Source: an uncultured Gemmatimonadota bacterium (GTDB lineage Bacteria; JAAXHH01). Taken from it: a DNA stretch of 64,000 nt. Positions within the stretch are counted from its first letter, which is position 1, and each line of letters opens with the position of its first letter. Where the stretch lies: positions 2,272,001 to 2,336,000 of the forward strand of contig OX638340.1 in NCBI GenBank assembly GCA_951812955.1. The letters are read 5' to 3'. The translations under genes were made by a program, and so were the position numbers. The notes below the pieces were generated by a model, which saw only the letters and a program-made list of their open reading frames with translations, did no database searches and was not told the DNA's origin. Shown here piece after piece: positions 14,372 through 41,772 of the stretch.

Positions 14372-15607
14372 ATGCCGACCATCAGGCCCTACGACCCGGA
14401 ACGCGATCGAGACGCGATCATCCGGGTCTGGCGCGAAGTACATTGGATCACCAGCGACGTGCAGGCCAAGTGGGCGCCGCTGTTCATGGAGAAAACCCGG
14501 ACCGACGTGGCGGAGGTGAACGGCGAAGCGGAGTGCCAGGCTTCATCGACCGACGGGACGTTCCGCTACCAGGACGAAGACCTGGCCATGTCCGCCATCG
14601 TGGGCGTGACGACCAGCCGCGTCGCCCGCAAGCAACGTCTCGCCCAGCGGGTTACGGCGCACCGCATTGCCGAAGACGCCGCCCGGGGGGCGGAGATCTG
14701 CATGCTGACCATGTTCGAGCAGGGATTCTACGACCTGATGGGATTCGGCACGGGTCCCTACGGACACAGGGTGCGGTTCGATCCCGCCGACCTCACGATC
14801 GACCGGCCCTTCCGGGTGCCCAGGCGCCTGACCGCCGACGACTGGGAAATGATCCATTCCGCCATGGTAAACCGCAGGTTGACCCACGGTGGCTGCAGGC
14901 TGTATCCGGCGGAGTTGCTGCAGGTCGAACTGAATCACTCGGAGAAATCCTTCGTGCTGGGCTACTGCGATGGTCCAGGCGGCGAGCTGACCCACTTCTT
15001 CTGGGCGAGCGACAATGAAGAGCACGGTCCCTGCTATGTCTACATGATGGCCTACCAGGATCATTCCCAGCTCATGGAACTGCTCGCGCTCATGAAATCT
15101 CTCGGAGACCAGATTCGGCTCTTCCAGATCGTCGAACCCCCCGACGTGCAAATCCAGGACCTGATCAGGCAGCCCTTTCGGGCCAGGATCGTATCCGAAA
15201 AAGGTCCCTTCAACACACTGATTCGGGGTGATGGGTACTGGCAGGCCCGGATCTGCGACCTGGAAGCCTGCATGGCCAAGACCCGCCTGCACGGCCCGTC
15301 GACGCGGTTCAATCTTTCCCTGAGCGATCCCATCGAGAAGTACCTGGACGCCGGCGCGTCCTGGCGAGGTCTTAGTGGGGAGTACGTGGTCACGCTGGGT
15401 CCCGAGTCCCAGGCTGAACCCGGCGCCGACCCCGCACTACCTACGCTGGCCGCCTCCGTCGGCGCCTTCACCCGTCTCTGGCTCGGCGTTCGTCCCGCCA
15501 CCGGCCTGGCCGTCACCGACGACCTGTCCGGTCCCCCCGAACTGCTGTCCGCGCTGGATCGCACCCTGCGCCTGCCCGTGCCGGGGATGTGCGGGTGGGA
15601 GTTTTAG
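14372..15607 (+). CDS. GNAT-family N-acetyltransferase with a C-terminal sterol-carrier-like domain (Eis-like architecture).
   Basis: MPTIRPYDPERDRDAIIRVWREVHW... is the GNAT fold, followed by a roughly 100-aa C-terminal domain. Total length is about 411 aa. The ribosome-binding site AAGGAAG lies 6 nt upstream of the ATG at 14372. Confidence 0.6.
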   Translation: MPTIRPYDPERDRDAIIRVWREVHWITSDVQAKWAPLFMEKTRTDVAEVNGEAECQASSTDGTFRYQDEDLAMSAIVGVTTSRVARKQRLAQRVTAHRIAEDAARGAEICMLTMFEQGFYDLMGFGTGPYGHRVRFDPADLTIDRPFRVPRRLTADDWEMIHSAMVNRRLTHGGCRLYPAELLQVELNHSEKSFVLGYCDGPGGELTHFFWASDNEEHGPCYVYMMAYQDHSQLMELLALMKSLGDQIRLFQIVEPPDVQIQDLIRQPFRARIVSEKGPFNTLIRGDGYWQARICDLEACMAKTRLHGPSTRFNLSLSDPIEKYLDAGASWRGLSGEYVVTLGPESQAEPGADPALPTLAASVGAFTRLWLGVRPATGLAVTDDLSGPPELLSALDRTLRLPVPGMCGWEF

Positions 15608-15723
15608 ATTTCCGCGACTTTTCCTACTAATGCTATAACTGCATTTCCCGGCGGTTCTTCACGATTCGATGAACCCCTGCCGCGAACGTACTGCTCGGTC
15701 GAGCTAACTTTAAGAGGTTCGTG

Positions 15724-15965
15724 ATGGTTCTCAAGATCAATTCAAAAAGCAAATCACCTTACCGACAAGTGTTCTGGATGCCCTCGGTGTGGATCCCGGT
15801 GACCAGATTGAAATCATCGAGGGACCTGATGGATTCATCCTCAGGCCCCGGAAAATTGACTATTCAAGTCTGGGGACATTGAAGGAGAAAACTCGACGCG
15901 GTCACGACACCTTCGATATCCAGGTCTTCCGCGAGCAGCCCTATAGCCCATCGCTAAAGGAATGA
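15724..15965 (+). pseudogene. AbrB/MazE/SpoVT-family antitoxin gene interrupted by a -1 frameshift in an A5 run (15744-15748).
   Basis: From the ATG at 15724 the frame reads MVLKINSK, then shifts. The adjacent frame reads QFKKQITLPTSVLDALGVDPGDQIEIIEGPDGFILRPRK...KE*. One extra A in the homopolymer would give a clean 80-aa AbrB-fold protein. The downstream 15962-16120 region has only short decayed ORFs and no recognisable toxin. Confidence 0.5.
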
Positions 15966-16165
15966 TACCTCGGTGCTTGCCGAAATCAAGGAAGTGCAGG
16001 ATCGTGCGGGTTTCTGCGTAGGCAGATTTTGGAGATCCATCGGTAAATGCGTTGAAAGTTGGAGTGGTGGAGATGGGGTTCCTCAAGCCACACTTGAAGA
16101 ATACAAACATTAGTTGGTGTGTCCGTGATTGTGTCCTCATTACATTGCGGAACCAGACTGAATAG

Positions 16166-16183
16166 TATATCATACTCGATATA
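16166..16183. promoter_or_regulatory. Inverted repeat TATATC-N6-GATATA about 107 nt upstream of hicB. It is a possible operator.
   Basis: Sequence tatatcatactcgatata in the AT-rich leader of the hicBA pair. Confidence 0.25.
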
Positions 16184-16289
16184 CATTTGGATCTTACGAT
16201 CCAGTGGAAGGAAGAGTTCCCAGGACCAACCCAATCTTGGATTTGTGGATCTTATACAAGCGTTGCGACGATCAGTGGAGCGAACAACG

Positions 16290-16505
16290 ATGAAAAACGA
16301 GTTCACTGCGATTATCGAAAGGGACGAAGAAATATACATTGCTTTTTGTCCCGAAATACCGGAAGCGAATGGCCAAGGCGCGACCAAGGATGAAGCCTGC
16401 GAGAGCTTGGCAGAGGCCATTGCCCTTGTATTGGAAGATCGCCGGGAAGAGGGGCTTCGCGGAGCAGCCCCTGGAGCTATTCGAGAAAGAGTCACCATTT
16501 CGTGA
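16290..16505 (+). CDS. hicB: HicB-family antitoxin (short N-terminal-domain-only form).
   Basis: MKNEFTAIIERDEEIYIAFCPEIPEANGQGATKDEACESLAEAIALVLEDRREEG matches the HicB/UPF0150 N-terminal fold. Its stop overlaps the GTG start of hicA (GTGA). Confidence 0.6.
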   Translation: MKNEFTAIIERDEEIYIAFCPEIPEANGQGATKDEACESLAEAIALVLEDRREEGLRGAAPGAIRERVTIS

Positions 16506-16690
16506 AACGGAGGAGTTTAATCCGACATCTCCAAAGACACAACTGTCAACTCAAACGCGAAGGACGTTCGCATTCATTGTGGTGTAATTCGATAACGGGG
16601 GCTGTCGAAACAATTCCTCGTCATACCGAGATTTCTAACCGTCTGGCGCGTAAGATATGCCGAAATCTCTCAGTTCCTGATATACTGTAA
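16502..16690 (+). CDS. hicA: HicA-family mRNA interferase toxin.
   Basis: (GTG)KRRSLIRHLQRHNCQLKREGRSHSLWCNSITGAVETIPRHTEISNRLARKICRNL has the HicA dsRBD-like fold, with a conserved GSH motif and the 'TIP.H' region. Confidence 0.75.
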   Translation: MKRRSLIRHLQRHNCQLKREGRSHSLWCNSITGAVETIPRHTEISNRLARKICRNLSVPDIL

Positions 16691-16839
16691 CCATGACTAA
16701 TCGTCTTGTGATTTGATCAACAAAGTTGTTTGCAGAATTACCTGTTCTCCAGAAGTACCCCTCCCATCTGAAACAGCACTCCTCAAAGGCAATCTGAGTC
16801 AGCGTTACGACGTCAAGATGACGTTTATCTTCGAAGTAC

Positions 16840-18084
16840 TCAGCGCATGAAGCACGGAAGCGCCTGGCTGACCGCCGGTGGATGAACGATGCGCTTGACC
16901 AGACTGCCTGATCCGTCGTCCTGCCACTGGATCTGTATGCCCTTCAGGTCGCGCTGGGCGCCGGCCTGGGCGTCGCCGATCGGATAGACACCGAACGGTC
17001 CCAGGACAGTCAGTTTGGAGGTCGCAAACAGAAAGTTGCGTATTGACGCCCGGTCGATTTCCCCGGTGGGCGTAGCGGCCCGGTTGATGCCCTCCGCGAG
17101 CAGCTCCACGGCGCCGAAACCTGCGGCGGCCTGGTAGTCCGGCATCCTGTGGTAGGCCGCTTCGTAGCGTCGTACGAACATCTCGTTCGTGGCGATGTAC
17201 CCCTCCGTGCGGATCGTTGGATCCCAGGCCGCGTTGCTGATGACGCAGCGACCAACCGCGCCTACCTCGTTGATGAAGGTTTCCCCGCTCGCCAGGAGGA
17301 GGGACGTCAGGAGCGGTCTGTATTCCACGGCGTCCACGGCCCGCGCGAACGCGATCGCGTCGTCCGAGTATCCTCCGCCGATGAACAGATCGGCGCCCGC
17401 ATCCCGCGCCATGGCCGCCAGTGCCTCGTGGTCCACGCTGCCCAACGCGTAGGCCTGCTCCATAACGATGTCGAGCCCACTGTTCCGCGCCGCGTCGCGT
17501 ATGCCCTGGGCCACCGCAGTGGGAAAGGCCGTATCCTCCCACACCAAAGCCACCGTGCGGGCGCCGGACTGCGCGGCCAGTTCCACCGATCCCTCGAGAT
17601 AAGTCGGGGCCGGATTCGTCACCTGCACGCTCCACTGCCGTCCCCGGTTCGCCCAGATCACGGGAGCCGCCGCCGCCGAGGAGACGAGCGGGATGCCGGC
17701 TGCTTCCGTCACGCCGATCACGGGTTCGGTGATCCCGCTGCTGTAGGGGCCCAGAAAGGCGGTGATCGAATCCGATGCGATCATCTCCTGATAGAGGCGA
17801 ACGCTCGCATCCGCGTCGCTCCCATCGTCGCGTATCACCAGCTGCACCTTCCGCCCGCCGATGCCGCCCTTCTCGTTCAGCATTTCGACGGCGAGCCTAT
17901 AGCCGCGGCTGACTTCCTCCCCGGGCGTGCTGAGGCGGCCGGTCTCCGCCACGGCCGCCCCAAGCGTGATGGGTTTCGGCGCCGGCGCCGGCGTTGACTC
18001 CGGCCCCATCGGATCTTCGTTGCCGCACGCGGCCAACGACATTGCCAGCGCCATTGCCAGCGCGCCAAGCCATCTTTGTCTCAT
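16840..18084 (-). CDS. ABC transporter substrate-binding lipoprotein, branched-chain amino acid (LivJ/LivK) family.
   Basis: It has a lipobox (LAACGNE). A type-I periplasmic-binding-protein pattern follows (RKVQLVIRDDGSDADASV...GPYSSGIT...). Length is 414 aa. Confidence 0.8.
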   Translation of the reverse strand: MRQRWLGALAMALAMSLAACGNEDPMGPESTPAPAPKPITLGAAVAETGRLSTPGEEVSRGYRLAVEMLNEKGGIGGRKVQLVIRDDGSDADASVRLYQEMIASDSITAFLGPYSSGITEPVIGVTEAAGIPLVSSAAAAPVIWANRGRQWSVQVTNPAPTYLEGSVELAAQSGARTVALVWEDTAFPTAVAQGIRDAARNSGLDIVMEQAYALGSVDHEALAAMARDAGADLFIGGGYSDDAIAFARAVDAVEYRPLLTSLLLASGETFINEVGAVGRCVISNAAWDPTIRTEGYIATNEMFVRRYEAAYHRMPDYQAAAGFGAVELLAEGINRAATPTGEIDRASIRNFLFATSKLTVLGPFGVYPIGDAQAGAQRDLKGIQIQWQDDGSGSLVKRIVHPPAVSQALPCFMR

Positions 18085-18114: not shown

Positions 18115-18435
18115 TCACAACTTCGGATCCGGATCCCCGGTATTCACGCCGCCTTCCTGTATCAGCAGGTAATTCATCGTCGATGCGGCCTGGCGAAACT
18201 TCATCGCCTCCTGGTAGGCCGGATCGTTGTACCATGCCTCGGCCTGCGCCTTGCTGGAAAATTCCAGAATTACCATCCTCCCGTCGTAATCATTGCCCTC
18301 GACGCAGGCGATCTCCTCGCCCCGCGTCAGGAACTTCCCCCCGTACTTCTTGACGATGGGAGGCGTCCGGTCGGTGTATTTACGGTAGATGTCAGGGTCG
18401 TGGATGGACATCATGGAGATGACATAAGCAGGCAT
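18115..18435 (-). CDS. DUF1330-family protein.
   Basis: 106 aa beginning MPAYVISMMSIHDPDIYRKY..., which is characteristic of the DUF1330 / dimeric alpha-beta barrel family. Confidence 0.65.
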   Translation of the reverse strand: MPAYVISMMSIHDPDIYRKYTDRTPPIVKKYGGKFLTRGEEIACVEGNDYDGRMVILEFSSKAQAEAWYNDPAYQEAMKFRQAASTMNYLLIQEGGVNTGDPDPKL

Positions 18436-20270: not shown

Positions 20271-21086
20271 TTAGTGCCGCGGTACCAGCACTTCGTTGGC
20301 GCTGTCCAGCCGGACGGGTTTCGCGTAGTGATACACGTTGACGCCCTCGGCGACCGGCGTGGGCACCCGGACGATGAACTCCACCCAGTCAGGTGTATTA
20401 AACGCGGCGAAGGCCAGTTCGATCCCTTCCATCATGTCTTCCGGGTCGCGGGTCAGGTCCGGCAGCAGTACCGGGCCCGTGTCCGGCTGGTAGATCCAGT
20501 CCCGCTCGTTGGCATTGATCGTCTTGACCGGGTATTCGAGCACCGCGGCGTACCGGTCGTTCCCGATGGTCGTCCGGGCGTTCAGGGGGACGTTGCCGAG
20601 GACGGCCTCGACGATGGTCCGCGGCGTCTCCAGAAGGCGGCCGTCCACGCGGGACAGGTCGATCCGGACGTCGTCGAAGGTCTCCGCGATGGCGACGATC
20701 TGCCGCTCGGGCTGCTCTCCCAGGGAGGGCGGGTAGAGCGTGGCGCCCCGGTTCGCCACCTCGTAGGTCTTGATGGCCATGAAGGTGTCCGACGAGAAGA
20801 TCGGCTTGAAGTCCGCGCTGGGGATGTGCCAGATATCCCGCTCCACCCCGACCTGTTCGGTCTTGCAACTCACCCCCAGGACGTATTCTTCCCGGAACCC
20901 GCCGTCCTTCCCGGTCACGGTCAGGGTGGCCTCTATGGGAATGCGGGCGTTATTCAGGGAATAGGGCACCTTCTGGGTCACGGTCTTCGGCGGTTTCTTC
21001 TCGGAATCCACGCGAAAGGTAAAATAGGAACGCGCGAAATCGATGGTCTGCATGGGCATGGGCACTCCTGAAAGGTTCTGCAGCAA
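20271..21086 (-). CDS. Hypothetical cytoplasmic protein. No family was recognised.
   Basis: 271-aa ORF with several alternative Met starts (M1/M10/M12) and no signal peptide. Its codon usage is typical for the genome. It lies 25 nt upstream of the hydrolase gene on the same strand. Confidence 0.45.
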   Translation of the reverse strand: MLQNLSGVPMPMQTIDFARSYFTFRVDSEKKPPKTVTQKVPYSLNNARIPIEATLTVTGKDGGFREEYVLGVSCKTEQVGVERDIWHIPSADFKPIFSSDTFMAIKTYEVANRGATLYPPSLGEQPERQIVAIAETFDDVRIDLSRVDGRLLETPRTIVEAVLGNVPLNARTTIGNDRYAAVLEYPVKTINANERDWIYQPDTGPVLLPDLTRDPEDMMEGIELAFAAFNTPDWVEFIVRVPTPVAEGVNVYHYAKPVRLDSANEVLVPRH

Positions 21087-21091
21087 CCGGC

Positions 21092-21266
21092 TATGGACTA
21101 CTTGATCCAGATGCAGCCTACAAATGGTTTTTCAACATCTGATTATGGACTACTTGACGCGACTGATTATGGACTACTTGTGATTATGTACCTTCTGTTC
21201 CAGACGCAGATTAAAATGGGTCCTGGACACGGTTATTCATACCTTCTGGACACGGTTATTCATACC
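21092..21266. repeat. Intergenic short direct repeats. TATGGACTACTTG occurs three times, and a 22-bp unit occurs twice; the second copy contains the stop codon of FtsX-1.
   Basis: The three-copy motif lies at about 21092, 21145 and 21169. The 22-bp copies ggacacggttattcatacct lie at 21221-21243 and 21245-21266. The minus-strand TAA of FtsX-1 is at 21256-21258. Confidence 0.85.
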
Positions 21267-23718
21267 TCAATGCATGCACAGGGTCGGACAGCGTGGTCTT
21301 CAACGTATGATACATCACAGTCAGCAGAGCGATCATCGTGACGAAAGCCCCTACGAGACCGAAGATGCCAAGATTGACCACGGCGTGATACGCAAACTCC
21401 TGAATCCACGTCATCATCATCGTGTACGCAATTGGCCAGGCTATGGCGTTTGCGATGAGTGACAAAATGACCACCTCGCGGCATTGCAGGGTTAACAGAC
21501 TCAGAAAAGTCGCTCCCAGTGCCTTTCGTATCCCCACTTCCCTGATGCGTTTTCTTGTCGTGTATGAAACAAGGCCGGTCAGGCCCAGGCAAGCGATAAG
21601 AACCGCTATCAGCGAAAAACTGCCGAGTATCGTAATCAGTCTGTTCTCTTCGTTATAGAACTGTGCGGTGTCTTCATCCAGGAAGTAGTAGGCAAATGCG
21701 AAGTCCGGATTGATGTCCCTCCATGTCTCCTCGATGAATGCCAGGGTTTCCTCGTAGTTCTCCGAACCGAGTTTAATGGACACATTCCAGAATTCATCTG
21801 ATGCGAGCATGGCGAGCGGTTCGATTTCCGACCTTAAGCTATTGTAATGAAAGTCATTTACTACCCCGATTACCGTTCTGAAGGATTCAGCGGCCTCCCC
21901 GGACGCTGACATGCCGCGGGGCGCAATCCACCTTATCCTTTCTCCCACGGCTCCTTCAGCAGAATCCCAGCCGGCTTTCGCGGCCGCGCGCTCGTTGAGA
22001 ATGATTGAACGCCTGTCTTCCGCCGCCAGGGTACTCGAGAAAAAACGTCCTGCTTTCATGGTCATGCCAAGCGTACGGAGGTAGTCGGCGTCGACCCAAA
22101 AGGTCCTTACCTGGATTTGCCCTCCGTCGTCTGCGGTTATCGGCCGTATGGTCGTTTGTAGCGGCGGTCTTCCCGGGGGCATGTCGGACCCGGAAACACT
22201 GAGTACGCTATGGTGTTCAAGCAGTCTTTCTTTCAGGGCCGAGAATGTATTTACGACAGGAGTGAATGTGAGCGGAATGACGACTATCCGTTGGTTGTCA
22301 TAGCCCAGGTCCTTGTCCCGGATGTAATCTATTTGCTGATACACGATGCAGGTAGCGATTATCAGAACAGTCGATATGGTGAATTGAAACACGACCAGCG
22401 TTTGACGCAGCGACGCCTTTTTTATCCCTCTGCTAATCCCGCTTTTAAGTACGTCAATCGGTTTGTAAGATGAAAGCAGGAGGGCGGGGTAAATGCCGGA
22501 GACAAGTCCAACCATCAGCGAAGTGCCGAGTAACGCCGGTATCAACTCGGAGATATCATAACTGATCTGGTCTGCTGACGCTGTCATCATACTGCTGAAC
22601 ACGGGAAGCAGGAACTCGATCATTCCCCAAGCGATAGGCAAGGCGATGATGGCGATAAACACAGACTCTCCGATATGCTGTGCCATCAGTTGGGCTCGTT
22701 GCGCTCCCAGCGTTTTACGCAGTCCTATTTCACCTGCACGGCCGCTCGAGTACGCGGTAGCGAGATTGATGAAGTTCACACAGGCAATCATCAGTATCAG
22801 TACCGCTACGGCGCCGTAGAGGAAAACAGTTGAAATACTGCCGTTTGGTTCCAACTCACCCATGCGACTAGAGTAAAGATGAATGGATGTCAGGGGTTGC
22901 AGAGTGAGGTCAAAAGTAATTTGCTCACTTTCAAACCGGGGATTCACGTGCCTGGAAACAAACTCGGGAAACTTGGTGGTCAATTCACCGGGGATGGAAG
23001 CCGGTGTGAGCAACAAGTAAACATGGCTGCGGTTCCAAAGATCCCAGGTGTACCGCTCATCCGGCCTAAAACTGACCGATGATTCACGTTGATGTGCGAG
23101 AAAATCATAATTCATGTGCGAGTTTGGTGGCAGGTCTCGCATTACCCCCACGATACGATAGTCCCAGGTATCTTCGGCGCGAATCGTTTTACCTATGGGA
23201 TCGGCATCCTTGAAGTACTTCAGCGCCATGGATTCGGACAAAACGACCGTAAAGGCGTCTTTCAGCGCGGTTTCGGGGTTTCCTTGAACGAATTCGACCG
23301 AAAAAACATCGAAAAACGTGGAGTCCGTGTGATAGAACCCCTTTTCATAGAATCGATTTTCGCCGTGGGCTATCATGTAGGAAGAACCCGGTTTCAGAAC
23401 GGTCACCGACGCTTGAATTTCCGGGAACTCCTCTTTCAGGACGCTGACCAGGGGGGTCAAGGCAGCAGCGGTTTCCGTGGTGCTGTTCGGACTGTGTATG
23501 TCCATCGCCACGCGGTATATTCTGTCTGAATTCACATTGAACCGATCGAAACTCAGTTCGAACCGCATGTAGAGCATAATCATCACGAAACATGTTACGC
23601 CAATTGTAAGACCCACTACATTGATGGATACATAAGCCTTATTGTTCCACAGGTGGCGAACAGTAGTCCTTAAAATGTTACTGATCAGCGACGCAGGAAG
23701 AAACCCGGTAGCGGCCAT
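21256..23718 (-). CDS. ABC-transporter permease with two FtsX domains and MacB-like periplasmic domains. No ATPase partner is present (FtsX-1).
   Basis: About 820 aa from MAATGFLPASLISNILRTTVRHLWNNKAYVSINVVGLTIGVTCFVMI.... It has the N-terminal transmembrane helix, large periplasmic domains and two 4-TM FtsX blocks. It is a paralog of the genes at 32238 and 37170. Confidence 0.85.
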   Translation of the reverse strand: MAATGFLPASLISNILRTTVRHLWNNKAYVSINVVGLTIGVTCFVMIMLYMRFELSFDRFNVNSDRIYRVAMDIHSPNSTTETAAALTPLVSVLKEEFPEIQASVTVLKPGSSYMIAHGENRFYEKGFYHTDSTFFDVFSVEFVQGNPETALKDAFTVVLSESMALKYFKDADPIGKTIRAEDTWDYRIVGVMRDLPPNSHMNYDFLAHQRESSVSFRPDERYTWDLWNRSHVYLLLTPASIPGELTTKFPEFVSRHVNPRFESEQITFDLTLQPLTSIHLYSSRMGELEPNGSISTVFLYGAVAVLILMIACVNFINLATAYSSGRAGEIGLRKTLGAQRAQLMAQHIGESVFIAIIALPIAWGMIEFLLPVFSSMMTASADQISYDISELIPALLGTSLMVGLVSGIYPALLLSSYKPIDVLKSGISRGIKKASLRQTLVVFQFTISTVLIIATCIVYQQIDYIRDKDLGYDNQRIVVIPLTFTPVVNTFSALKERLLEHHSVLSVSGSDMPPGRPPLQTTIRPITADDGGQIQVRTFWVDADYLRTLGMTMKAGRFFSSTLAAEDRRSIILNERAAAKAGWDSAEGAVGERIRWIAPRGMSASGEAAESFRTVIGVVNDFHYNSLRSEIEPLAMLASDEFWNVSIKLGSENYEETLAFIEETWRDINPDFAFAYYFLDEDTAQFYNEENRLITILGSFSLIAVLIACLGLTGLVSYTTRKRIREVGIRKALGATFLSLLTLQCREVVILSLIANAIAWPIAYTMMMTWIQEFAYHAVVNLGIFGLVGAFVTMIALLTVMYHTLKTTLSDPVHALRYE

Positions 23719-23852
23719 GGCGGATCTCCAGCAGCTTAAAACGGGATTTCGTACAGGAAGCAGAAGCCACCCCAACCTTATGCGGACAATATAGTGTTCC
23801 CCTCGACTTTTCGGTACGACATTACAGGCGTAACGCGGCAACCAGGAGCACC

Positions 23853-25697
23853 ATGTCAAGCGAACTGACCAGGACCTACCGCCCGTTCTCGGACTCCCGC
23901 CCCTACACCCGCTGGTGGTGGTTCTACGATGACATCAGGGCGGTGGACATCCGGACGCAGTTGCGATGGGTGCGGGACCAGGGATTCGGTGGCGTGGAGA
24001 TCGCCTTCATGTATCCGCAGCCAGGGTCCGGTGAAGGGCCCCACTGGCTGAGCGAGGCGTGGACCGACTTGGTCGCCTTCGCCAAGGAAGAGGCGGACCG
24101 GCTCGGGATCGGATGCGACTTCACCTTCAGCACGTCCTGGCCCTTCGGTGGGTCGATCGTTCCCGAGGAGGACGCGGGACAGGTATTCGGCGGGCCGGCG
24201 ACCCAGCGCCTGGAAAAGTCGTGGGAACTGTCCTATTTCGGCCGCGGCCGGATCCTGAACCACCTGGACACGGGCGCGTTCAGCCGTTACGCCGAGCAGG
24301 TAGGTGGCGCACTGAAACCCGCCCTGCGCGGTACGACCTCGGGAATGTTCTCCGATTCGTGGGAGGTTTTCCCGGAGGGCCTCTGGAGCGCCCACCTGGA
24401 CCCCGTCTTCAGGGATCGTTTCGGGTACGACCTGGAACCGTTCAAGGCATGTATCGACCAGCATCCCGACGTGCGGTACGATTACCGGAAGATCCTGTCG
24501 GATGCGGCGATCGAGGGCTTCTTCAGGCCCTATGCCGAGGTTTGCCACCGCCTCGGCGCCGTGAGCCGCGTGCAGTGTCACGGGGCGCCGACGGACCTGC
24601 TGGCCGCTTTCGCGCTCGTGGACGTCCCGGAATCGGAGGCCCTGCTGTTCGAGACGTTCTTCTCGGCCATACCGGGTTCGGCCGCGGCCCTGGGCTCTCG
24701 GCCCGTGGTGACCTGCGAGACGTTCACCTGTATCTACGGCTACGCGCCATGGCCCGCGCCGTCACCCCATCACGGCGAGGAGAAGGTGGAGGACATGAAG
24801 CTCATGGCGGACGCGGTGTTCGCCAACGGCGTCAACCACATCGTCTGGCACGGCATGCCCTACAACGCGCCGGGCGGGAACAACACCTTCTACGCGACCA
24901 CGCACGTCGGTCCGGGCAGCGGATTCGCCGGCCGGCTTCCGGCCTTCAACGCCTACATGGCCGAGGCCTCCGATTTCGTCAAGCAGGGCAGAACGTATAC
25001 GGACGTGGCCGTGTACCTCCCACTGGAAGACCACTGGATGTGCCATACGCTGCCCGAGGAACGGCGCGGACCGGCCGCGAACTATTACTGGGAACTGCAA
25101 ACCGTCGAACGGCCCGGTGCCTTGCTTGGGTACCATCCCCTCTGGATATCGACGCCTTTTCTGGAGGAAGCGGAGGTGGAGGACGGCCGCGTTCGATATG
25201 GAGAGGCAGTCTTTTCCGTATTGTATGTGGACGTGGAATGGCTGGACGGCGAAGCCCTGTCGGCCCTGCAGCGGCTGGCAAGGGAAGGTGCGCATATCGT
25301 CATTCCGCGCAGGCCTGCCGCGCCCGGCCACCGTCCGCCTGCGGATTACGAGGATCGCCTGAAACAACTGATGAGCCAACCAGCGGTTACCACTGATCCG
25401 GGTGAGGCGCTGCGGCATCCTCCCCTCGTGAGCGGCCTGGACACGCCGGAATTCTGGTGCAGGGAGGTCGACGGCGACTACCACCTATACTTCGCCCATC
25501 CCGATACGAAGCGCATCCGGTACCCCATGGCCTACGAGGGCTGGCGTTCCACGGGCCTGGTCGAGCGGGAAGTAGTCCTGCATGTCAACAGCCGGGAGCG
25601 GACGGTGCGCCTGGCCTTCGAGCCCGAAGATGCCATGCTGGTCAGGGTATCGGCCACGGGCGCGGTGGACGTGGAACCGGGGCGTGTTGATGAGTGA
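23853..25697 (+). CDS. Putative glycoside hydrolase. The family is uncertain, possibly GH106-like.
   Basis: 614 aa. The N-terminal motif RPYTRWWWFYDD and TIM-barrel-like acid-residue spacing point to a glycoside hydrolase. No signal peptide is present. Assignment is from memory of GH N-terminal motifs only. Confidence 0.35.
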   Translation: MSSELTRTYRPFSDSRPYTRWWWFYDDIRAVDIRTQLRWVRDQGFGGVEIAFMYPQPGSGEGPHWLSEAWTDLVAFAKEEADRLGIGCDFTFSTSWPFGGSIVPEEDAGQVFGGPATQRLEKSWELSYFGRGRILNHLDTGAFSRYAEQVGGALKPALRGTTSGMFSDSWEVFPEGLWSAHLDPVFRDRFGYDLEPFKACIDQHPDVRYDYRKILSDAAIEGFFRPYAEVCHRLGAVSRVQCHGAPTDLLAAFALVDVPESEALLFETFFSAIPGSAAALGSRPVVTCETFTCIYGYAPWPAPSPHHGEEKVEDMKLMADAVFANGVNHIVWHGMPYNAPGGNNTFYATTHVGPGSGFAGRLPAFNAYMAEASDFVKQGRTYTDVAVYLPLEDHWMCHTLPEERRGPAANYYWELQTVERPGALLGYHPLWISTPFLEEAEVEDGRVRYGEAVFSVLYVDVEWLDGEALSALQRLAREGAHIVIPRRPAAPGHRPPADYEDRLKQLMSQPAVTTDPGEALRHPPLVSGLDTPEFWCREVDGDYHLYFAHPDTKRIRYPMAYEGWRSTGLVEREVVLHVNSRERTVRLAFEPEDAMLVRVSATGAVDVEPGRVDE

Positions 25698-34779: not shown

Positions 34780-36381
34780 TCAGTCAACGACAAACGTGTT
34801 TTCACTACGGCGAAAACTCCTATCATCGCCAAACGAAACATCATAAACCAGTCTATACTCACCGGCGACTTCCGGATCGTATGGGCAAGCGTCGAATTCC
34901 ACCCGTGTGGCCTCGATGTCTTCCCATGTACTGCCCATATCGTCGCTTCGCTGCCATACGGAGTAATGGACCGTCATGGGGATACCTAACGGCTGAGTTG
35001 GGTAGTTGTTTAGTTCAGCACGAAAGAGTGAACTTGCACAGTATTCTATAGTTATAGGAGTATATCCTGGTCCCGTGAATATCAACTTACCGGGCTCGAC
35101 CTTCCAACCTTCCCACGGGACATAGACTATCTCGTCGACTGGCTCGTCGACGCCTTCGCCGCCATCCCCGCCATCCCCGCCTTCACCACCTTCCCCTTCA
35201 GTCGGAACCATGACCGTGATACTCACCATGGCCGACACGTCGCCGGACGCGGCCGTGACTACGGCCATGCCGTTGCCCACCGCTTCTACCAATCCATCCT
35301 CGTCCACGGTGATCACGTTTTCGTCACCGCTCGTCCACGTGACGGCCGGTTCGGCAATGGCATTGTCGTTCCCGTCGCTGACGGAAACCATGAGTTGCAG
35401 GGTCTGTTCGATCTCGGTCAGCGTGGTGGCATCGGGTGCGACCTCGATGCTGATGCCGGCCGGAACCTGGGCGACGGTGATCGACGCAGTCCCCATAGCG
35501 TCTCCGGCCTGTGCCGTGATCTCCGCCATGCCGTTGTCCACCGCGGTCACAAGCCCGTTCTCGTCCACGGTGGCCACGGCGTCATCGGCGCTTGACCAGG
35601 TCACCATCACGTCCTCCATCGCGTTTTCGTGCTGGTCCAGCACGACGGCCGCGAGTTCCACGGTGTCGCCGATCGCTTCCAGCGTGTGCGCAGCGGGCTC
35701 GATCGTCAGGCTCGTCGGCACGGATACGGATACCGTGATGGACGCACTGGCGGACAGGCTGCCGGATGTGGCCGTGATCTCAGCCATCCCGTTACTCACC
35801 GCCGTTACAAGGCCCGCCCCGCTCACGGTCGCCACGGCGTCGTCGCCGCTCGACCAGGTGATGGACTGGCCGGACATGATGTTGTTCCGCTGATCCCGCA
35901 CCGTAGCCGACAACTGTACCGTTTCCCCGATCGCCTTCAGCGTATGGGACGTCGGTGCGACCGTGATCCGGGTCGGCACCGGCTCGGCCACCGTGATGTT
36001 CGCAGTGCCCGTCGCGTTGCCGGACTGCGCCCTTATTTGCGCGGCGCCGTTGGCCACGGCCGTCACCAGGCCATTTCCGCTGACAGTCGCCACCGCGGTA
36101 TTGCTGCTCGACCAAGTCACCGCCTGGCCGGTCATCGGATTGTTGTTCTGGTCCCTCACCATGGCCATCAGTTGCACGGTCGCGCCAATCGTCGCCAGCG
36201 TGTGCGAAGACGGCGTGACAGAAATGCTCGTCGCAACGGGCGCAGGCGGTGGAGCAGGCGGGGTCGGTGTGGACGGCTCGGGACTCGTCGGGCTGCTGTC
36301 CCCGCCACCGCATCCCGCCAGAAAAACCAGGTACAAGGATGCCGTGATCTTGGCGAACACGCGACTGTATGGACCAAACAC
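34780..36381 (-). CDS. Surface lipoprotein with four Big_2 (bacterial Ig-like group 2) domains, a Gly/Glu/Asp linker and an unclassified roughly 125-aa Cys-containing C-terminal domain (Big2-1).
   Basis: GTG start with an AAGGAG ribosome-binding site. It begins MFGPYSRVFAKITASLYLVFLAGCGGGDSS (lipobox), followed by a Pro/Thr linker. Four repeats carry the Big_2 signature (..TVQL.A.V.DQ.NN.M.GQ..TWSS....VATV...GLVTAV.NG.A.I.A..). The C-terminal domain reads VPWEG...CASSL...VHYSVWQRSDDMGSTWEDIE...DACPY.PEVAGEYRLV. Confidence 0.8.
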   Translation of the reverse strand: MFGPYSRVFAKITASLYLVFLAGCGGGDSSPTSPEPSTPTPPAPPPAPVATSISVTPSSHTLATIGATVQLMAMVRDQNNNPMTGQAVTWSSSNTAVATVSGNGLVTAVANGAAQIRAQSGNATGTANITVAEPVPTRITVAPTSHTLKAIGETVQLSATVRDQRNNIMSGQSITWSSGDDAVATVSGAGLVTAVSNGMAEITATSGSLSASASITVSVSVPTSLTIEPAAHTLEAIGDTVELAAVVLDQHENAMEDVMVTWSSADDAVATVDENGLVTAVDNGMAEITAQAGDAMGTASITVAQVPAGISIEVAPDATTLTEIEQTLQLMVSVSDGNDNAIAEPAVTWTSGDENVITVDEDGLVEAVGNGMAVVTAASGDVSAMVSITVMVPTEGEGGEGGDGGDGGEGVDEPVDEIVYVPWEGWKVEPGKLIFTGPGYTPITIEYCASSLFRAELNNYPTQPLGIPMTVHYSVWQRSDDMGSTWEDIEATRVEFDACPYDPEVAGEYRLVYDVSFGDDRSFRRSENTFVVD

Positions 36382-39708: not shown

Positions 39709-41772
39709 TCAGGGGATGACAAACGTATTCTCACTACGGCGAAAACTCCTATCATCGTCAAGCGAAATATCACCAACCAGTCTATACTCACCGGCGACTT
39801 CCGGATTGTATGGGCAAGCGTCGAATTCCACCCGTGTGTCCTCGATGTCTTCCCATGTACTGCCCATATCGTCGCTTCGCTGCCATACGGAGTAATGGAC
39901 CGTAATGGTGACACCTAACGGAGTTGGGCGGTTGTTTAGTTCTCCACCTAAGAGTGAACTTGCGCAGTTTACTATAGGTATTGTAGCAAGTCCTGGGACC
40001 GTAAAAACCAACCGACCGGGCTCGACCCGCACACCTTCCCACGGGACGTAGGTGACTTCATCCACCGTAATGGTCACCGTGATGCTCACCATGGCCGACA
40101 CGTCGCCGGACGCGGCCGTAACTTCGGTCATGCCGTTGCCCACAGCTTCTACCAACCCATCCTCGTCCACGGTGACCACGTTCTCGTCACCGCTCGTCCA
40201 CGTGACGGCCGGTTCGGCAATGGCATTGTCGTTCCCGTCGCTGACGGAAACCATGAGTTGCAGGGTCTGTTCGATCTCGGTCAGCGTGGTGGCATCGGGT
40301 GCGACCTCGATGCTGATGCCGGCCGGAACCTGGGCGACGGTGATCGACGCAGTCCCCATAGCGCCTCCGGCCTGGGCCGTGATCTCCGCCATGCCGTTGT
40401 CCACCGCGGTGACCACGCCGTTCTCGTCCACGGTGGCCACGGCGTCGTCGCCGCTCGACCAGGTCACCATCACGTCCTCCATCGCGTTTTCGTGCTGGTC
40501 CAGTACGACGGCCGCGAGTTCCACGGTGTCGCCGATCGCTCCCAGCGTGTGCGCGGCTGGCTCGATCGTGATGCTCGTTGCCACGGGCTCGGATATCACC
40601 ATGACCGTGATACTCACCATGGCCGATACGTCGCCGGATGCGGCCGTAACTGCGGCCATGCCGTTCCCCACCGCTTCTACCAAACCATCCTCGTCCACGG
40701 TGGCCACGTTTTCGTCACCGCTCGTCCACGTGACGGCCGGTTCGGCAATGGCATTGTCGTTCCCGTCGCTGACGGAAACCATGAGTTGCAGGGTCTGTTC
40801 GATCTCGGTCAGCGTGGTGGCATCGGGTGCGACCTCGATGCTGATGCCGGCCGGAACCTGGGCGACGGTGATCGACGCAGTCCCCATAGCGTCTCCGGCC
40901 TGTGCCGTGATCTCCGCCATGCCGTTGTCCACCGCGGTCACAAGCCCGTTCTCGTCCACGGTGGCCACGGCGTCATCGGCGCTTGACCAGGTCACCATCA
41001 CGTCCTCCATCGCGTTTTCGTGCTGGTCCAGCACGACGGCCGCGAGTTCCACGGTGTCGCCGATCGCTTCCAGCGTGTGCGCAGCGGGCTCGATCGTCAG
41101 GCTCGTCGGCACGGATACGGATACCGTGATGGACGCACTGGCGGACAGGCTGCCGGATGTGGCCGTGATCTCAGCCATCCCGTTACTCACCGCCGTTACA
41201 AGGCCCGCCCCGCTCACGGTCGCCACGGCGTCGTCGCCGCTCGACCAGGTGATGGACTGGCCGGACATGATGTTGTTCCGCTGATCCCGCACCGTAGCCG
41301 ACAACTGTACCGTTTCCCCGATCGCCTTCAGCGTATGGGACGTCGGTGCGACCGTGATCCGGGTCGGCACCGGCTCGGCCACCGTGATGTTCGCAGTGCC
41401 CGTCGCGTTGCCGGACTGCGCCCTTATTTGCGCGGCGCCGTTGGCCACGGCCGTCACCAGGCCATTTCCGCTGACAGTCGCCACCGCGGTATTGCTGCTC
41501 GACCAAGTCACCGCCTGGCCGGTCATCGGATTGTTGTTCTGGTCCCTCACCATGGCCATCAGTTGCACGGTCGCGCCAATCGTCGCCAGCGTGTGCGAAG
41601 ACGGCGTGACAGAAATGCTCGTCGCAACGGGCGCAGGCGGTGGAGCAGGCGGGGTCGGTGTGGACGGCTCGGGACTCGTCGGGCTGCTGTCCCCGCCACC
41701 GCATCCCGCCAGAAAAACCAGGTACAAGGATGCCGTGATCTTGGCGAACACGCGACTGTATGGACCAAACAC
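39709..41772 (-). CDS. Surface lipoprotein with six Big_2 domains and a diverged copy of the same C-terminal domain (Big2-2).
   Basis: The first roughly 410 aa are identical to Big2-1. Two extra Big_2 domains from an internal tandem duplication (about 40060-40600 versus 40600-41160) follow. The C-terminal domain is about 75% identical to that of Big2-1. Confidence 0.8.
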   Translation of the reverse strand: MFGPYSRVFAKITASLYLVFLAGCGGGDSSPTSPEPSTPTPPAPPPAPVATSISVTPSSHTLATIGATVQLMAMVRDQNNNPMTGQAVTWSSSNTAVATVSGNGLVTAVANGAAQIRAQSGNATGTANITVAEPVPTRITVAPTSHTLKAIGETVQLSATVRDQRNNIMSGQSITWSSGDDAVATVSGAGLVTAVSNGMAEITATSGSLSASASITVSVSVPTSLTIEPAAHTLEAIGDTVELAAVVLDQHENAMEDVMVTWSSADDAVATVDENGLVTAVDNGMAEITAQAGDAMGTASITVAQVPAGISIEVAPDATTLTEIEQTLQLMVSVSDGNDNAIAEPAVTWTSGDENVATVDEDGLVEAVGNGMAAVTAASGDVSAMVSITVMVISEPVATSITIEPAAHTLGAIGDTVELAAVVLDQHENAMEDVMVTWSSGDDAVATVDENGVVTAVDNGMAEITAQAGGAMGTASITVAQVPAGISIEVAPDATTLTEIEQTLQLMVSVSDGNDNAIAEPAVTWTSGDENVVTVDEDGLVEAVGNGMTEVTAASGDVSAMVSITVTITVDEVTYVPWEGVRVEPGRLVFTVPGLATIPIVNCASSLLGGELNNRPTPLGVTITVHYSVWQRSDDMGSTWEDIEDTRVEFDACPYNPEVAGEYRLVGDISLDDDRSFRRSENTFVIP

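Follow-up and report, generated by a model that had tools for sequence, protein, structure and literature searches.

How a segment of markedly low GC content has come to lie between a GNAT gene and a binding-protein gene, and what has become of the toxin-antitoxin (TA) genes that it carries, are the questions raised by a 1232-bp islet in the stretch of 64,000 nucleotides analysed here (the window), which derives from an uncultured Gemmatimonadota bacterium (contig OX638340.1). At a GC content of 0.479, against 0.644 in the GNAT gene and 0.666 in the binding-protein gene, the islet represents the minimum among all 1232-bp segments of the window (mean 0.608, sd 0.038) and falls about 3.4 sd under the mean, showing the deviant composition of a genomic island; the GC3 of hicBA (0.40-0.49) is similarly low when set against that of the flanks (0.65-0.81). 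The low-GC islet of about 1.2 kb reported in a preliminary description of this DNA is thus present, and we consider it very likely to be a long-standing TA slot that combines a dead vapBC-type module with an apparently intact Class 2 hicBA module (Table 1). Throughout a clade of uncultured bacteria this slot would follow an Eis-like GNAT gene, and here it would contain two type II modules in tandem that differ in how far they have decayed. For comparison we used related loci (numbered L001 onwards) from MAGs of uncultured bacteria labelled Ca. Latescibacterota or Gemmatimonadetes, in which each gene was scored as intact, truncated or absent at the slot.

Table 1. Features of the islet and its flanks (coordinates are positions in the window).
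Feature	Position	Strand	Basis or content
GNAT gene, 5' flank of islet	14372-15607	+	Pfam
Low-GC islet	15608-16839	.	Composition; TA genes occupy the same slot in L001-L015, L023-L030
AbrB/SpoVT-fold (VapB-type) antitoxin pseudogene	15724-15965	+	PF04014 and TIGR01439 after repair; DNA alignment
PIN (VapC) toxin gene remnant, first 12 codons only	15943-15978	+	Alignment with L001:5186-5584, L012:7588-7986
135-nt stretch in frame with PIN remnant, no assigned origin or family	15979-16113	+	ORF fragment ...AEIKEVQDRAGFCVGRFW...EEYKH-stop
hicBA leader	16114-16289	+	Two inverted repeats, Shine-Dalgarno
hicB, 71-aa antitoxin	16290-16505	+	Pfam, homologues, PDB match, AlphaFold2
hicA, 62-aa toxin, GTG start	16502-16690	+	PF07927, homologues, alignment, AlphaFold2
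AT-rich tail, 149 nt, between convergent hicA and binding-protein genes	16691-16839	.	No feature identified
Peripla_BP_6 binding-protein gene, 3' flank of islet	16840-18084	-	Pfam

The first module is broken in both of its genes. As sequenced, the window lacks the intact antitoxin ORF of a vapBC operon: the gene, which is preceded by a Shine-Dalgarno sequence (AAGAGG, 7 nt upstream of the ATG), is split over two frames (ORFs 15721-15882 and 15789-15965), and its membership in the AbrB fold family is recovered only when one base is added. The repaired product of 80 aa then matches Pfam PF04014 (E 7.6e-11, 42.2 bits against a cutoff of 24.7) as well as TIGR01439, and it has intact homologues of 80-81 aa with up to 93% identity, confirming that the antitoxin is frameshifted. 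The repair initially proposed, the addition of an A to an A5 run, does not withstand alignment with the DNA of the relatives, which locates a 1-nt deletion at 15743/15744, directly 5' of the run (15744-15748), where the relatives read AATTC(T/G)AAAAAG and the window AATTC-AAAAAG. Since A5 is also what the closest relatives have, an A6 run that lost one A is not the explanation; most simply, the alignment would make the missing base the wobble base of the Ser codon that precedes the run. Programmed frameshifting or transcriptional slippage at this position was considered and rejected, given that the run is short, that in the relatives, whose A5 is identical, a single frame encodes the whole protein, and that a stimulatory structure was not found.

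Of the partner toxin, the window retains a remnant in which the start codon has changed from ATG to ATA and a TAA occupies codon 5; with the antitoxin 3' end it shares the overlap seen in the intact relatives. A PIN toxin gene directly downstream of the antitoxin gene, as in vapBC, is found in the orthologous loci L001 and L012 (Pfam PIN PF01850, 29.8 and 29.3 bits, respectively) and not in the window, where homology to their DNA stops at 15979 and 15977. The breakpoint is shared by L024, L027 and L029. A tblastn search of the window with the PIN protein of the relatives returned no match, in agreement with the original observation that only decayed fragments follow the antitoxin. Comparison of these fragments (15973-16110) with toxin families, a check suggested at the outset, revealed no MazF, Doc or other toxin family, nor any Pfam or NCBIfam match, and HMMER, run exhaustively against 1.84 billion protein representatives, returned only the same remnant ORF of a relative (P0187) together with repetitive junk.

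The antitoxin frameshift may instead be a sequencing or assembly error, in which case the orphan antitoxin would be intact and functional, for instance by regulating on its own or by conferring immunity to PIN toxins that act in trans, and we regard this as a serious possibility, if somewhat short of an even chance. All the closest relatives (L023-L029) carry an intact 80-aa gene, and among lineages that are all devoid of the toxin the orphan displays a dN/dS of 0.13-0.18, from which it follows that it has been maintained. Moreover, the window copy shows no extra non-synonymous divergence with respect to L023 when both are compared with L024 (dN 0.074 versus 0.068), and the indel abuts a homopolymer, a typical site of error. 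On the other hand, the absence of a T or G before an A5 run that the relatives share is not a simple homopolymer miscount; inactivation of this gene does occur in the clade, since L005 carries an in-frame stop that is independent of the frameshift in the window; and the window copy has accumulated lineage-specific changes at the conserved C-terminus (D75S and D80E). When JGI metagenome contigs were scanned for the sequence pattern of the gene in either frame, 0 matches emerged, and the GNAT and DUF1330 proteins of the window had no exact counterpart on record.

With or without this frameshift, the slot itself appears to be old. The composition of the islet had been read as a sign of horizontally acquired DNA, yet a recently transferred island is a very improbable explanation of what is found in the relatives. 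It is true that the islet is the segment of lowest GC in the window, that TA genes are typically mobile and that the cargo of the slot varies among relatives, comprising AbiEi, MNT-HEPN, DUF2283 and ORFs without known family. Nonetheless, the same genes follow the GNAT gene in the same order in more than 20 related MAGs, the islet occupies the corresponding position in L001-L005, L007, L010-L013, L015 and L023-L030, and its identity in the closest relatives (94-98%) equals that of the flanking core genes. Neither an integrase or transposase, nor a tRNA, nor a flanking direct repeat was found in or beside the islet (two weak 19-nt pairs in the GC-rich coding flanks are taken as chance), and no plasmid or phage DNA matched it. 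Conservation of the islet in relatives had been named beforehand as the outcome that would speak against acquisition, and the comparison of its boundaries has largely produced it. Synteny thus appears largely to refute a recent acquisition, and the variable content of the slot fits an old hotspot.

The tail beyond hicA is 81-88% identical to that of the closest relatives, and neither a terminator-like site nor an RNA family nor a significant repeat was found in it. A promoter scan found no sigma-70-like promoter on the plus strand of the islet, the terminator-like matches returned by a scan fall within genes or at the 3' end of the GNAT gene, and an Rfam scan of 15400-17000 with E values up to 1 gave no match. 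Two further ORFs, one antisense (15841-16173, 110 aa) and one at 16713-16850, belong to no family and were taken as chance ORFs.

The second module conforms to the initial reading of a hicB gene followed by a GTG-started hicA gene with a GTGA overlap (16502-16505). This layout, with a 4-nt overlap (GTGA or ATGA) and a hicB of 71-72 aa, recurs in seven other loci (L029-L035). The antitoxin consists of a partial RNase H-like N-terminal domain only and has no DNA-binding domain, as had been proposed: it aligns with positions 2-63 of the 123 in the Pfam profile HicB_lk_antitox (19.3 bits, under the cutoff of 27), and its 2697 homologues, mostly of 71 aa, are named HicB by NCBI and JGI. It also matches TTHA1756 (PDB 2yzt) by sequence (E 2.5e-5 over residues 1-59), and its AlphaFold2 model (pLDDT 86.6) describes a beta-beta-beta-alpha arrangement of three strands and one long helix, followed by a 14-residue tail, for which the N-terminal domain of HicB in 6g1c is the best match among PDB folds. 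The toxin exceeds the cutoff of PF07927 by a small margin (28.4 bits against 27) and its homologues are named HicA toxin. Among 27 of them G21 is invariant and H24 is at least 90% conserved; the window protein has both, in a G-R-S-H rather than a G-S-H motif. The equivalent residues of B. pseudomallei HicA, His24 and Gly22, are required, and in complexes HicB masks the His (PMC11594946).

Sequence searches of the PDB with HicA, alone or as a 27-sequence profile, gave no match, and a fold search was needed. The AlphaFold2 model (pLDDT 96.1) has HicA toxins as all seven of its best PDB matches, including 4p78_C, 1whz, 6hpb_A and 6g26_E/F (the latter with TM 0.82 and rmsd 1.3). Foldseek E-values for the two models are weak (about 0.02) because HicA and HicB are tiny, with a probability of 1.00 and TM scores of 0.6-0.8. 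Neither protein matched NCBIfam or PADLOC models, and the PADLOC defence models gave no match for the AbrB-fold product either. Both genes evolve under purifying selection (dN/dS 0.04-0.13 for hicB and 0.11-0.24 for hicA). Taken together, the agreement of the two models with solved structures of HicA and HicB, the conservation of His24 and this selection on both genes make it probable that the pair is functional. Among the relatives, L024-L028 have nevertheless lost 150 bp (window 16482-16631) that include part of the toxin gene, and in L002 and L015 that gene is cut off after 14 codons; toxins have thus been lost repeatedly at this slot, hicA by at least two deletions and the PIN gene by truncation. 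Selection to keep the toxin is therefore evidently not strong across the clade.

The leader of hicBA, with a Shine-Dalgarno GGAG 10 nt before the hicB ATG, contains the inverted repeat TATATC-N6-GATATA noted earlier (16166-16183), which extends to arms of 7 bp as GTATATC-N6-GATATAC (16165-16184) and lies 106-125 nt upstream of hicB, and a second, small repeat (TGGATC-N4-GATCCA, 16188-16203). A role as operator finds no support, in view of a HicB without DNA-binding domain and of a number of 7-bp-arm repeats (2 observed against 0.98 +/- 1.16 in shuffles) that is not rarer than chance. L027, L029 and L030 keep the first repeat at an unchanged offset, L024 has it with one mismatch and L031-L034 lack it; wider conservation of the leader is limited to about -65 to -1. 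A hand-read promoter candidate (TTGCGG-17-TATCAT) overlaps the inverted repeat; it lies under the scan threshold and is a guess only.

An alternative in which the retained AbrB-fold protein acts as a DNA-binding repressor of hicBA through these repeats, making the slot a single three-part arrangement instead of two independent modules, appears to us rather far-fetched. The AbrB gene has remained under purifying selection after the loss of its toxin and is, both in the window and in L024-L030, the immediate upstream neighbour of hicBA; wherever the two adjoin, the leader keeps the repeat (at about -125), including in L030, at 84-92% protein identity; and the regulation of Class 2 hicBA is an open question (PMC10865869). 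Yet L031-L035 have hicBA of the same family but neither an AbrB gene nor the repeat, L001 and L012 have AbrB and PIN but no hicBA, other genes separate AbrB from hicBA in L002, L003 and L015, the repeats are as frequent as chance would have them, and the AbrB gene is broken in the window itself. We would accordingly give little credence to the broader notion that selection kept the AbrB gene after PIN loss for another job, such as repressing a hicBA whose own antitoxin has no DNA-binding domain. Were it true, it would provide one concrete answer to how Class 2 hicBA is regulated, and a genuine frameshift in the window would amount to a natural knockout of the regulator.

Returning to the reading of a long-standing slot with two modules, the course of events may be envisaged as follows. 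The PIN gene would have been deleted after codon 12, before the lineage of the window diverged from its nearest relatives; the antitoxin of the AbrB fold would have survived as an orphan under purifying selection, and a 1-nt deletion would then have truncated its frame in this sequence. In the second module, HicA is predicted to be a small RNase with a dsRBD-like fold and a catalytic His24, for which RNA cleavage and growth arrest would be expected from its family, and HicB would mask its active site by analogy with solved HicAB complexes. The GTGA overlap and the weak GTG start would couple the translation of hicA to that of hicB and presumably keep toxin output at or below that of the antitoxin. 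Lacking a DNA-binding domain, HicB cannot autorepress the operon. The biological role of the pair might be phage defence or addiction to the locus.

With known TA types in a slot common to its relatives, the locus is ordinary, and in itself it matters little beyond correct annotation. Annotation does deserve attention, however, since a GTG-started hicA that overlaps the hicB stop is often overlooked by gene callers (e.g. in L029, L034 and L035), and hicB therefore seems solitary more often than it truly is. More generally, the slot provides a clean and well-sampled natural series of TA decay, in which toxins are lost first, and repeatedly, while antitoxins are kept under purifying selection and one of them is then hit by a frameshift or stop. 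As such it could serve to illustrate how TA loci turn over in host-associated bacteria that are uncultured.

Among known systems, mazEF can be set aside almost entirely as a model for the first module: although the best Pfam family of the AbrB-fold gene is named MazE_antitoxin, from which a MazE half with a decayed MazF could be envisaged, PF04014 covers the SpoVT/AbrB fold in general, similarity to MazF or PemK as toxin partner is seen nowhere, and the gene that overlaps the AbrB 3' end in L001 and L012, whose first 12 codons the window keeps, encodes a PIN-domain protein. The partner is thus PIN/VapC, the dead module is of vapBC type and the MazE-type label must be abandoned. The likeness to vapBC with an AbrB/SpoVT-type VapB and a PIN VapC extends to the antitoxin fold and to the antitoxin-first order, with the 3' end of the antitoxin overlapping the start of the toxin, as in L001 and L012. 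The window differs in its toxin of 12 codons and its frameshifted antitoxin, and its vapBC is therefore a pseudogene pair. Population-genomic surveys of Klebsiella and E. coli have reportedly found loss to be more frequent among toxin genes than among antitoxin genes, with solitary antitoxins persisting, and the loss of toxin before antitoxin at this slot is of the same kind.

The hicBA pair invites comparison first with the classical hicAB systems of E. coli K-12, B. pseudomallei and Y. pestis (Classes 3 and 4; 6hpb, 6g26 and 4p78). The HicA fold (TM 0.69-0.82), the conserved Gly/His active-site motif and the partial RNase H-like N-terminal domain of HicB are alike, whereas the gene order is reversed and the window HicB has no C-terminal HTH or RHH domain, so that the operator binding and conditional cooperativity of classical hicAB cannot apply. 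The closest solved sequence relative of HicB, TTHA1756 from Thermus thermophilus, is a stand-alone HicB-like protein of 67 aa with the same single-domain size and an uncharacterised function. A much closer counterpart is the Class 2 hicBA of Gerdes (2024, mBio), defined by hicB as first gene and a small HicB (63-103 codons) without DNA-binding domain, and no member of which has been experimentally tested (PMC10865869). As the commonest bicistronic structure, with genes that usually overlap (PMC10865869), this class also qualifies the earlier description of the gene order as non-canonical, which holds only relative to E. coli hicAB. The window pair shares with it a HicA domain with a catalytic His and nearby Gly, a HicA of 62 aa (60-85 in the class), an upstream hicB whose 71-aa product has no recognisable DNA-binding domain, and overlapping genes, which suggest translational coupling. 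It shares, too, the proximity to other TA loci and solitary antitoxin genes, TA loci being known to cluster with solitary hicB genes (PMC10865869). The intact pair is hence one more module of a class whose regulation without a DNA-binding antitoxin is still unexplained; it shows no structural difference from Class 2 hicBA, to which it contributes a new sequence from a marine lineage that is uncultured.

The locus between the GNAT gene and the Peripla_BP_6 binding-protein gene reads as a dead vapBC-type module followed by a Class 2 hicBA module that is probably still live, both lodged in an old and compositionally distinct toxin-antitoxin (TA) slot. The sequence observations of the preliminary description were confirmed (a low-GC islet, a frameshifted antitoxin with no intact toxin, an N-domain-only HicB, a GTGA overlap of hicB and hicA and an inverted repeat in the leader), but the interpretation placed on them is only partly supported.

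Features of the islet and its flanking genes, in window positions
Feature	Position	Strand	Description
GNAT gene	14372-15607	+	Pfam Acetyltransf_9, weak SCP2_2 match; Eis-like layout
Islet	15608-16839		1232 bp, GC 0.479; from stop of GNAT gene to stop of convergent binding-protein gene
AbrB gene	15724-15965	+	ATG at 15724, AAGAGG ahead of it; TGA at 15963-15965
PIN toxin remnant	15943-15978		First 12 codons kept; ATG to ATA, codon 5 TAA, GIDTSVL to RNDTSVL
Inverted repeat 1	16165-16184		GTATATC-N6-GATATAC
Inverted repeat 2	16188-16203		TGGATC-N4-GATCCA (spacer TTAC), right after repeat 1
hicB	16290-16505		71 aa; N-terminal half of Pfam HicB_lk_antitox, sub-cutoff (19.3 vs 27)
hicA	16502-16690		62 aa; Pfam score 28.4, above cutoff 27
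Binding-protein gene	16840-18084	-	Pfam Peripla_BP_6, E 2.8e-50

The islet has the lowest GC content of any 1232-bp stretch across the 64 kb (mean 0.608, sd 0.038), as against 0.644 for the GNAT gene and 0.666 for the binding-protein gene. Another low-GC stretch (~0.50), at about 21056-23850, contains an 867-aa ORF (21256-23859, minus strand) with the appearance of a putative FtsX/MacB-type permease; it has no counterpart among the related loci L001-L015, in which the sequence up to 21056 directly adjoins that from about 23850. The binding-protein gene and the adjacent DUF1330 gene (18115-18435, minus strand) stand in the same order in the closest relatives (L024-L028) and are swapped, with DUF1330 first, in L003, L005, L007, L013 and L015; the former gene is absent altogether from L002, L008, L010, L011 and L012. 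Elsewhere in the window, three 93-nt ARAGORN calls of tRNA-Gly(CCC) (35335-35427, 40198-40290 and 40726-40818) fall in repeats longer than 400 bp and 99% identical inside long minus-strand ORFs (34780-36381 and 39709-41772); a repeated coding domain has almost certainly produced false positives here.

The AbrB/SpoVT-fold gene encodes MVLKINSK before its frame shifts, the remainder of the protein lying in another frame. Once a single base is put back, the resulting 80-aa protein matches PF04014 (42.2 bits against a cutoff of 24.7, E 7.6e-11) as well as TIGR01439 AbrB (29 bits, cutoff 28.3). In a collection of 5.8 billion proteins it has 38 homologues, almost all of exactly 80-81 aa; the highest identity is 93%. 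DNA alignment with eight relatives reveals AATTC[T/G]AAAAAG in the closest ones versus AATTC-AAAAAG in the window. Since the A5 run is thus shared, the simplest reading is that the wobble base of the Ser codon just 5' of it was lost, rather than that A6 slipped to A5; the added A of the preliminary description restores the frame correctly, but the homopolymer slip it implies is less neat. The window copy carries no surplus of non-synonymous changes with respect to its nearest allele, in L023, which argues that the frameshift either arose very recently or reflects an error of assembly; the error reading we judge somewhat improbable.

The missing toxin can be recognized in L001 and L012, where the antitoxin gene overlaps by about 23 nt the start of a 132-aa gene matching Pfam PIN (29.8 and 29.3 bits, respectively; cutoff 23.6). 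This partner argues that the disrupted module is of the vapBC type, and not of the MazE type first proposed. DNA homology of the window stops at 15979 with L001 and at 15977 with L012, and the sequence past PIN codon 12 bears no relation to PIN. The closest relatives L024, L027 and L029 share this breakpoint and the ensuing 135 nt, and hence the deletion that removed the toxin is older than their divergence. The 135-nt continuation matched no family, whether in Pfam, in NCBIfam or by exhaustive searching with HMMER. Among lineages all devoid of the PIN toxin, AbrB dN/dS is 0.13-0.18 (dS 0.39-0.59), so the orphan antitoxin has been maintained. Over AbrB and the spacer 5' of it (15608-15965), identity to L024, L027 and L029 is only 71-87%, versus 94-98% in the flanking genes and elsewhere in the islet; the differences are mostly synonymous, and this excess divergence suggests that AbrB alleles have been exchanged locally by recombination.

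A search with the GNAT protein yielded 15 close loci in species-representative genomes, and 13 further loci came from looking up homologues of the antitoxin, HicA and HicB. The relatives are MAGs labelled Ca. Latescibacterota or Gemmatimonadetes, and isolate names suggest that they derive from sponge and coral metagenomes. This comparison, which the preliminary description had put forward as a check on itself, reveals that the slot 3' of the GNAT gene holds TA genes in nearly all related loci.

State of the TA genes in the window and in loci of related or comparison genomes (L numbers)
State	Loci
AbrB and intact PIN, hicBA absent	L001, L012
AbrB intact, PIN truncated or absent	L002, L003, L004, L015, L024-L030
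AbrB disrupted	window (frameshift), L005 (in-frame stop)
hicBA intact	window, L029, L030, L034, L035
hicA lost through 150-bp deletion (window 16482-16631)	L024-L028
hicA truncated after 14 codons	L002, L015
hicB degraded	L003, L007, L008, L013

This pattern, in which toxins go first and repeatedly and antitoxins linger, is usual in chromosomal TA decay. The 150-bp deletion takes the 3' end of hicB together with 43 hicA codons; its junctions differ slightly (L024 AGCTGTTTCT, L027 AAGCTATTTCC), and in the window a short CGAGA motif lies close to either end of the segment. Other TA-type cargo of the slot includes an AbiEi-like antitoxin gene (L002:7795-8601, minus strand) and a nucleotidyltransferase (MNT) and HEPN pair with a DUF2283 gene (L003:8182-9210, plus strand); the slot ORFs of L004 and L015 belong to no family. 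Identity to the closest relatives is 94.6-98.7% for the PIN remnant, leader, hicB and hicA 3' end, similar to the 94-96% of flanking core genes, which argues that the islet was inherited together with its flanks. No integrase, tRNA or flanking repeat was found at the islet, nor any plasmid or phage similarity, and the horizontal acquisition initially proposed is not borne out as a recent event.

Both genes of the second module are under purifying selection (dN/dS 0.04-0.13 for hicB and 0.11-0.24 for hicA). Beyond the sub-cutoff Pfam match, the HicB assignment is supported by 2697 homologues, annotated as HicB family and most of exactly 71 aa, by a match to TTHA1756, a 67-aa T. thermophilus protein (2yzt, E 2.5e-5), and by the AlphaFold2 model (pLDDT 86.6). 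In this model three strands precede a helix of 25 residues and a short tail; among PDB entries it best matches HicB chains, including the B. pseudomallei N-terminal domain (6g1c). No HTH or RHH domain is present. The HicA model (pLDDT 96.1) has an alpha-beta-beta-beta-alpha layout, and each of its seven best matches in the PDB is a HicA toxin, with TM reaching 0.82 and an rmsd of 1.3 to 6g26. G21 and H24, kept across the family, are the equivalents of Gly22 and His24, which B. pseudomallei HicA needs for toxicity, the His being buried by HicB in complexes (PMC11594946). Seven further loci retain the gene overlap, reading either GTGA or ATGA, among them an Acidobacteriota MAG and, in unrelated gene neighbourhoods, L032 and L033. 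Intact GTG-start hicA genes overlapping the hicB stop are uncalled in the source annotations at L029:2146-2334, L034:514-699 and L035:580-765. Such uncalled genes probably inflate the apparent number of solitary hicB, with 2697 hits for HicB versus 28 for HicA.

In the leader, repeat 1 is kept at equal offset in L027 and L029, and as AGTATAT-N8-ATATACT in the more distant L030; L031-L034 lack it, their conservation ahead of the ATG being limited to about 65 nt. Repeat 2 is kept in L027; of the imperfect copies, that of L029 has TAGATC as its left arm, that of L024 one mismatch and that of L030 arms of 5 bp. TGGAT-like motifs recur nearer hicB. Inverted repeats of such size occur in the islet at chance frequency. 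Repeat 1 cannot be a HicB operator, because this HicB has no DNA-binding domain; its role, if any, may be that of a promoter element or of a binding site for some other factor.

HicA contexts fall into 14 classes (Gerdes 2024, PMC10865869), and the window pair displays every sequence-level trait of Class 2, with hicB upstream of hicA and a small HicB devoid of a DNA-binding domain. Only in comparison with the E. coli model system is its order, earlier termed non-canonical, a reversed one; hicBA with such a HicB is the most common bicistronic structure, usually with overlapping genes (PMC10865869). TA loci also cluster, solitary hicB genes and vapBC being among the neighbours, and the regulation of these hicBA operons is an open question (PMC10865869). 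Mild novelty would attach only to a role of the retained AbrB protein in regulating the adjacent hicBA, whose HicB has no DNA-binding domain, and we deem this very improbable. Both modules belong to known kinds, to which the window contributes further members.
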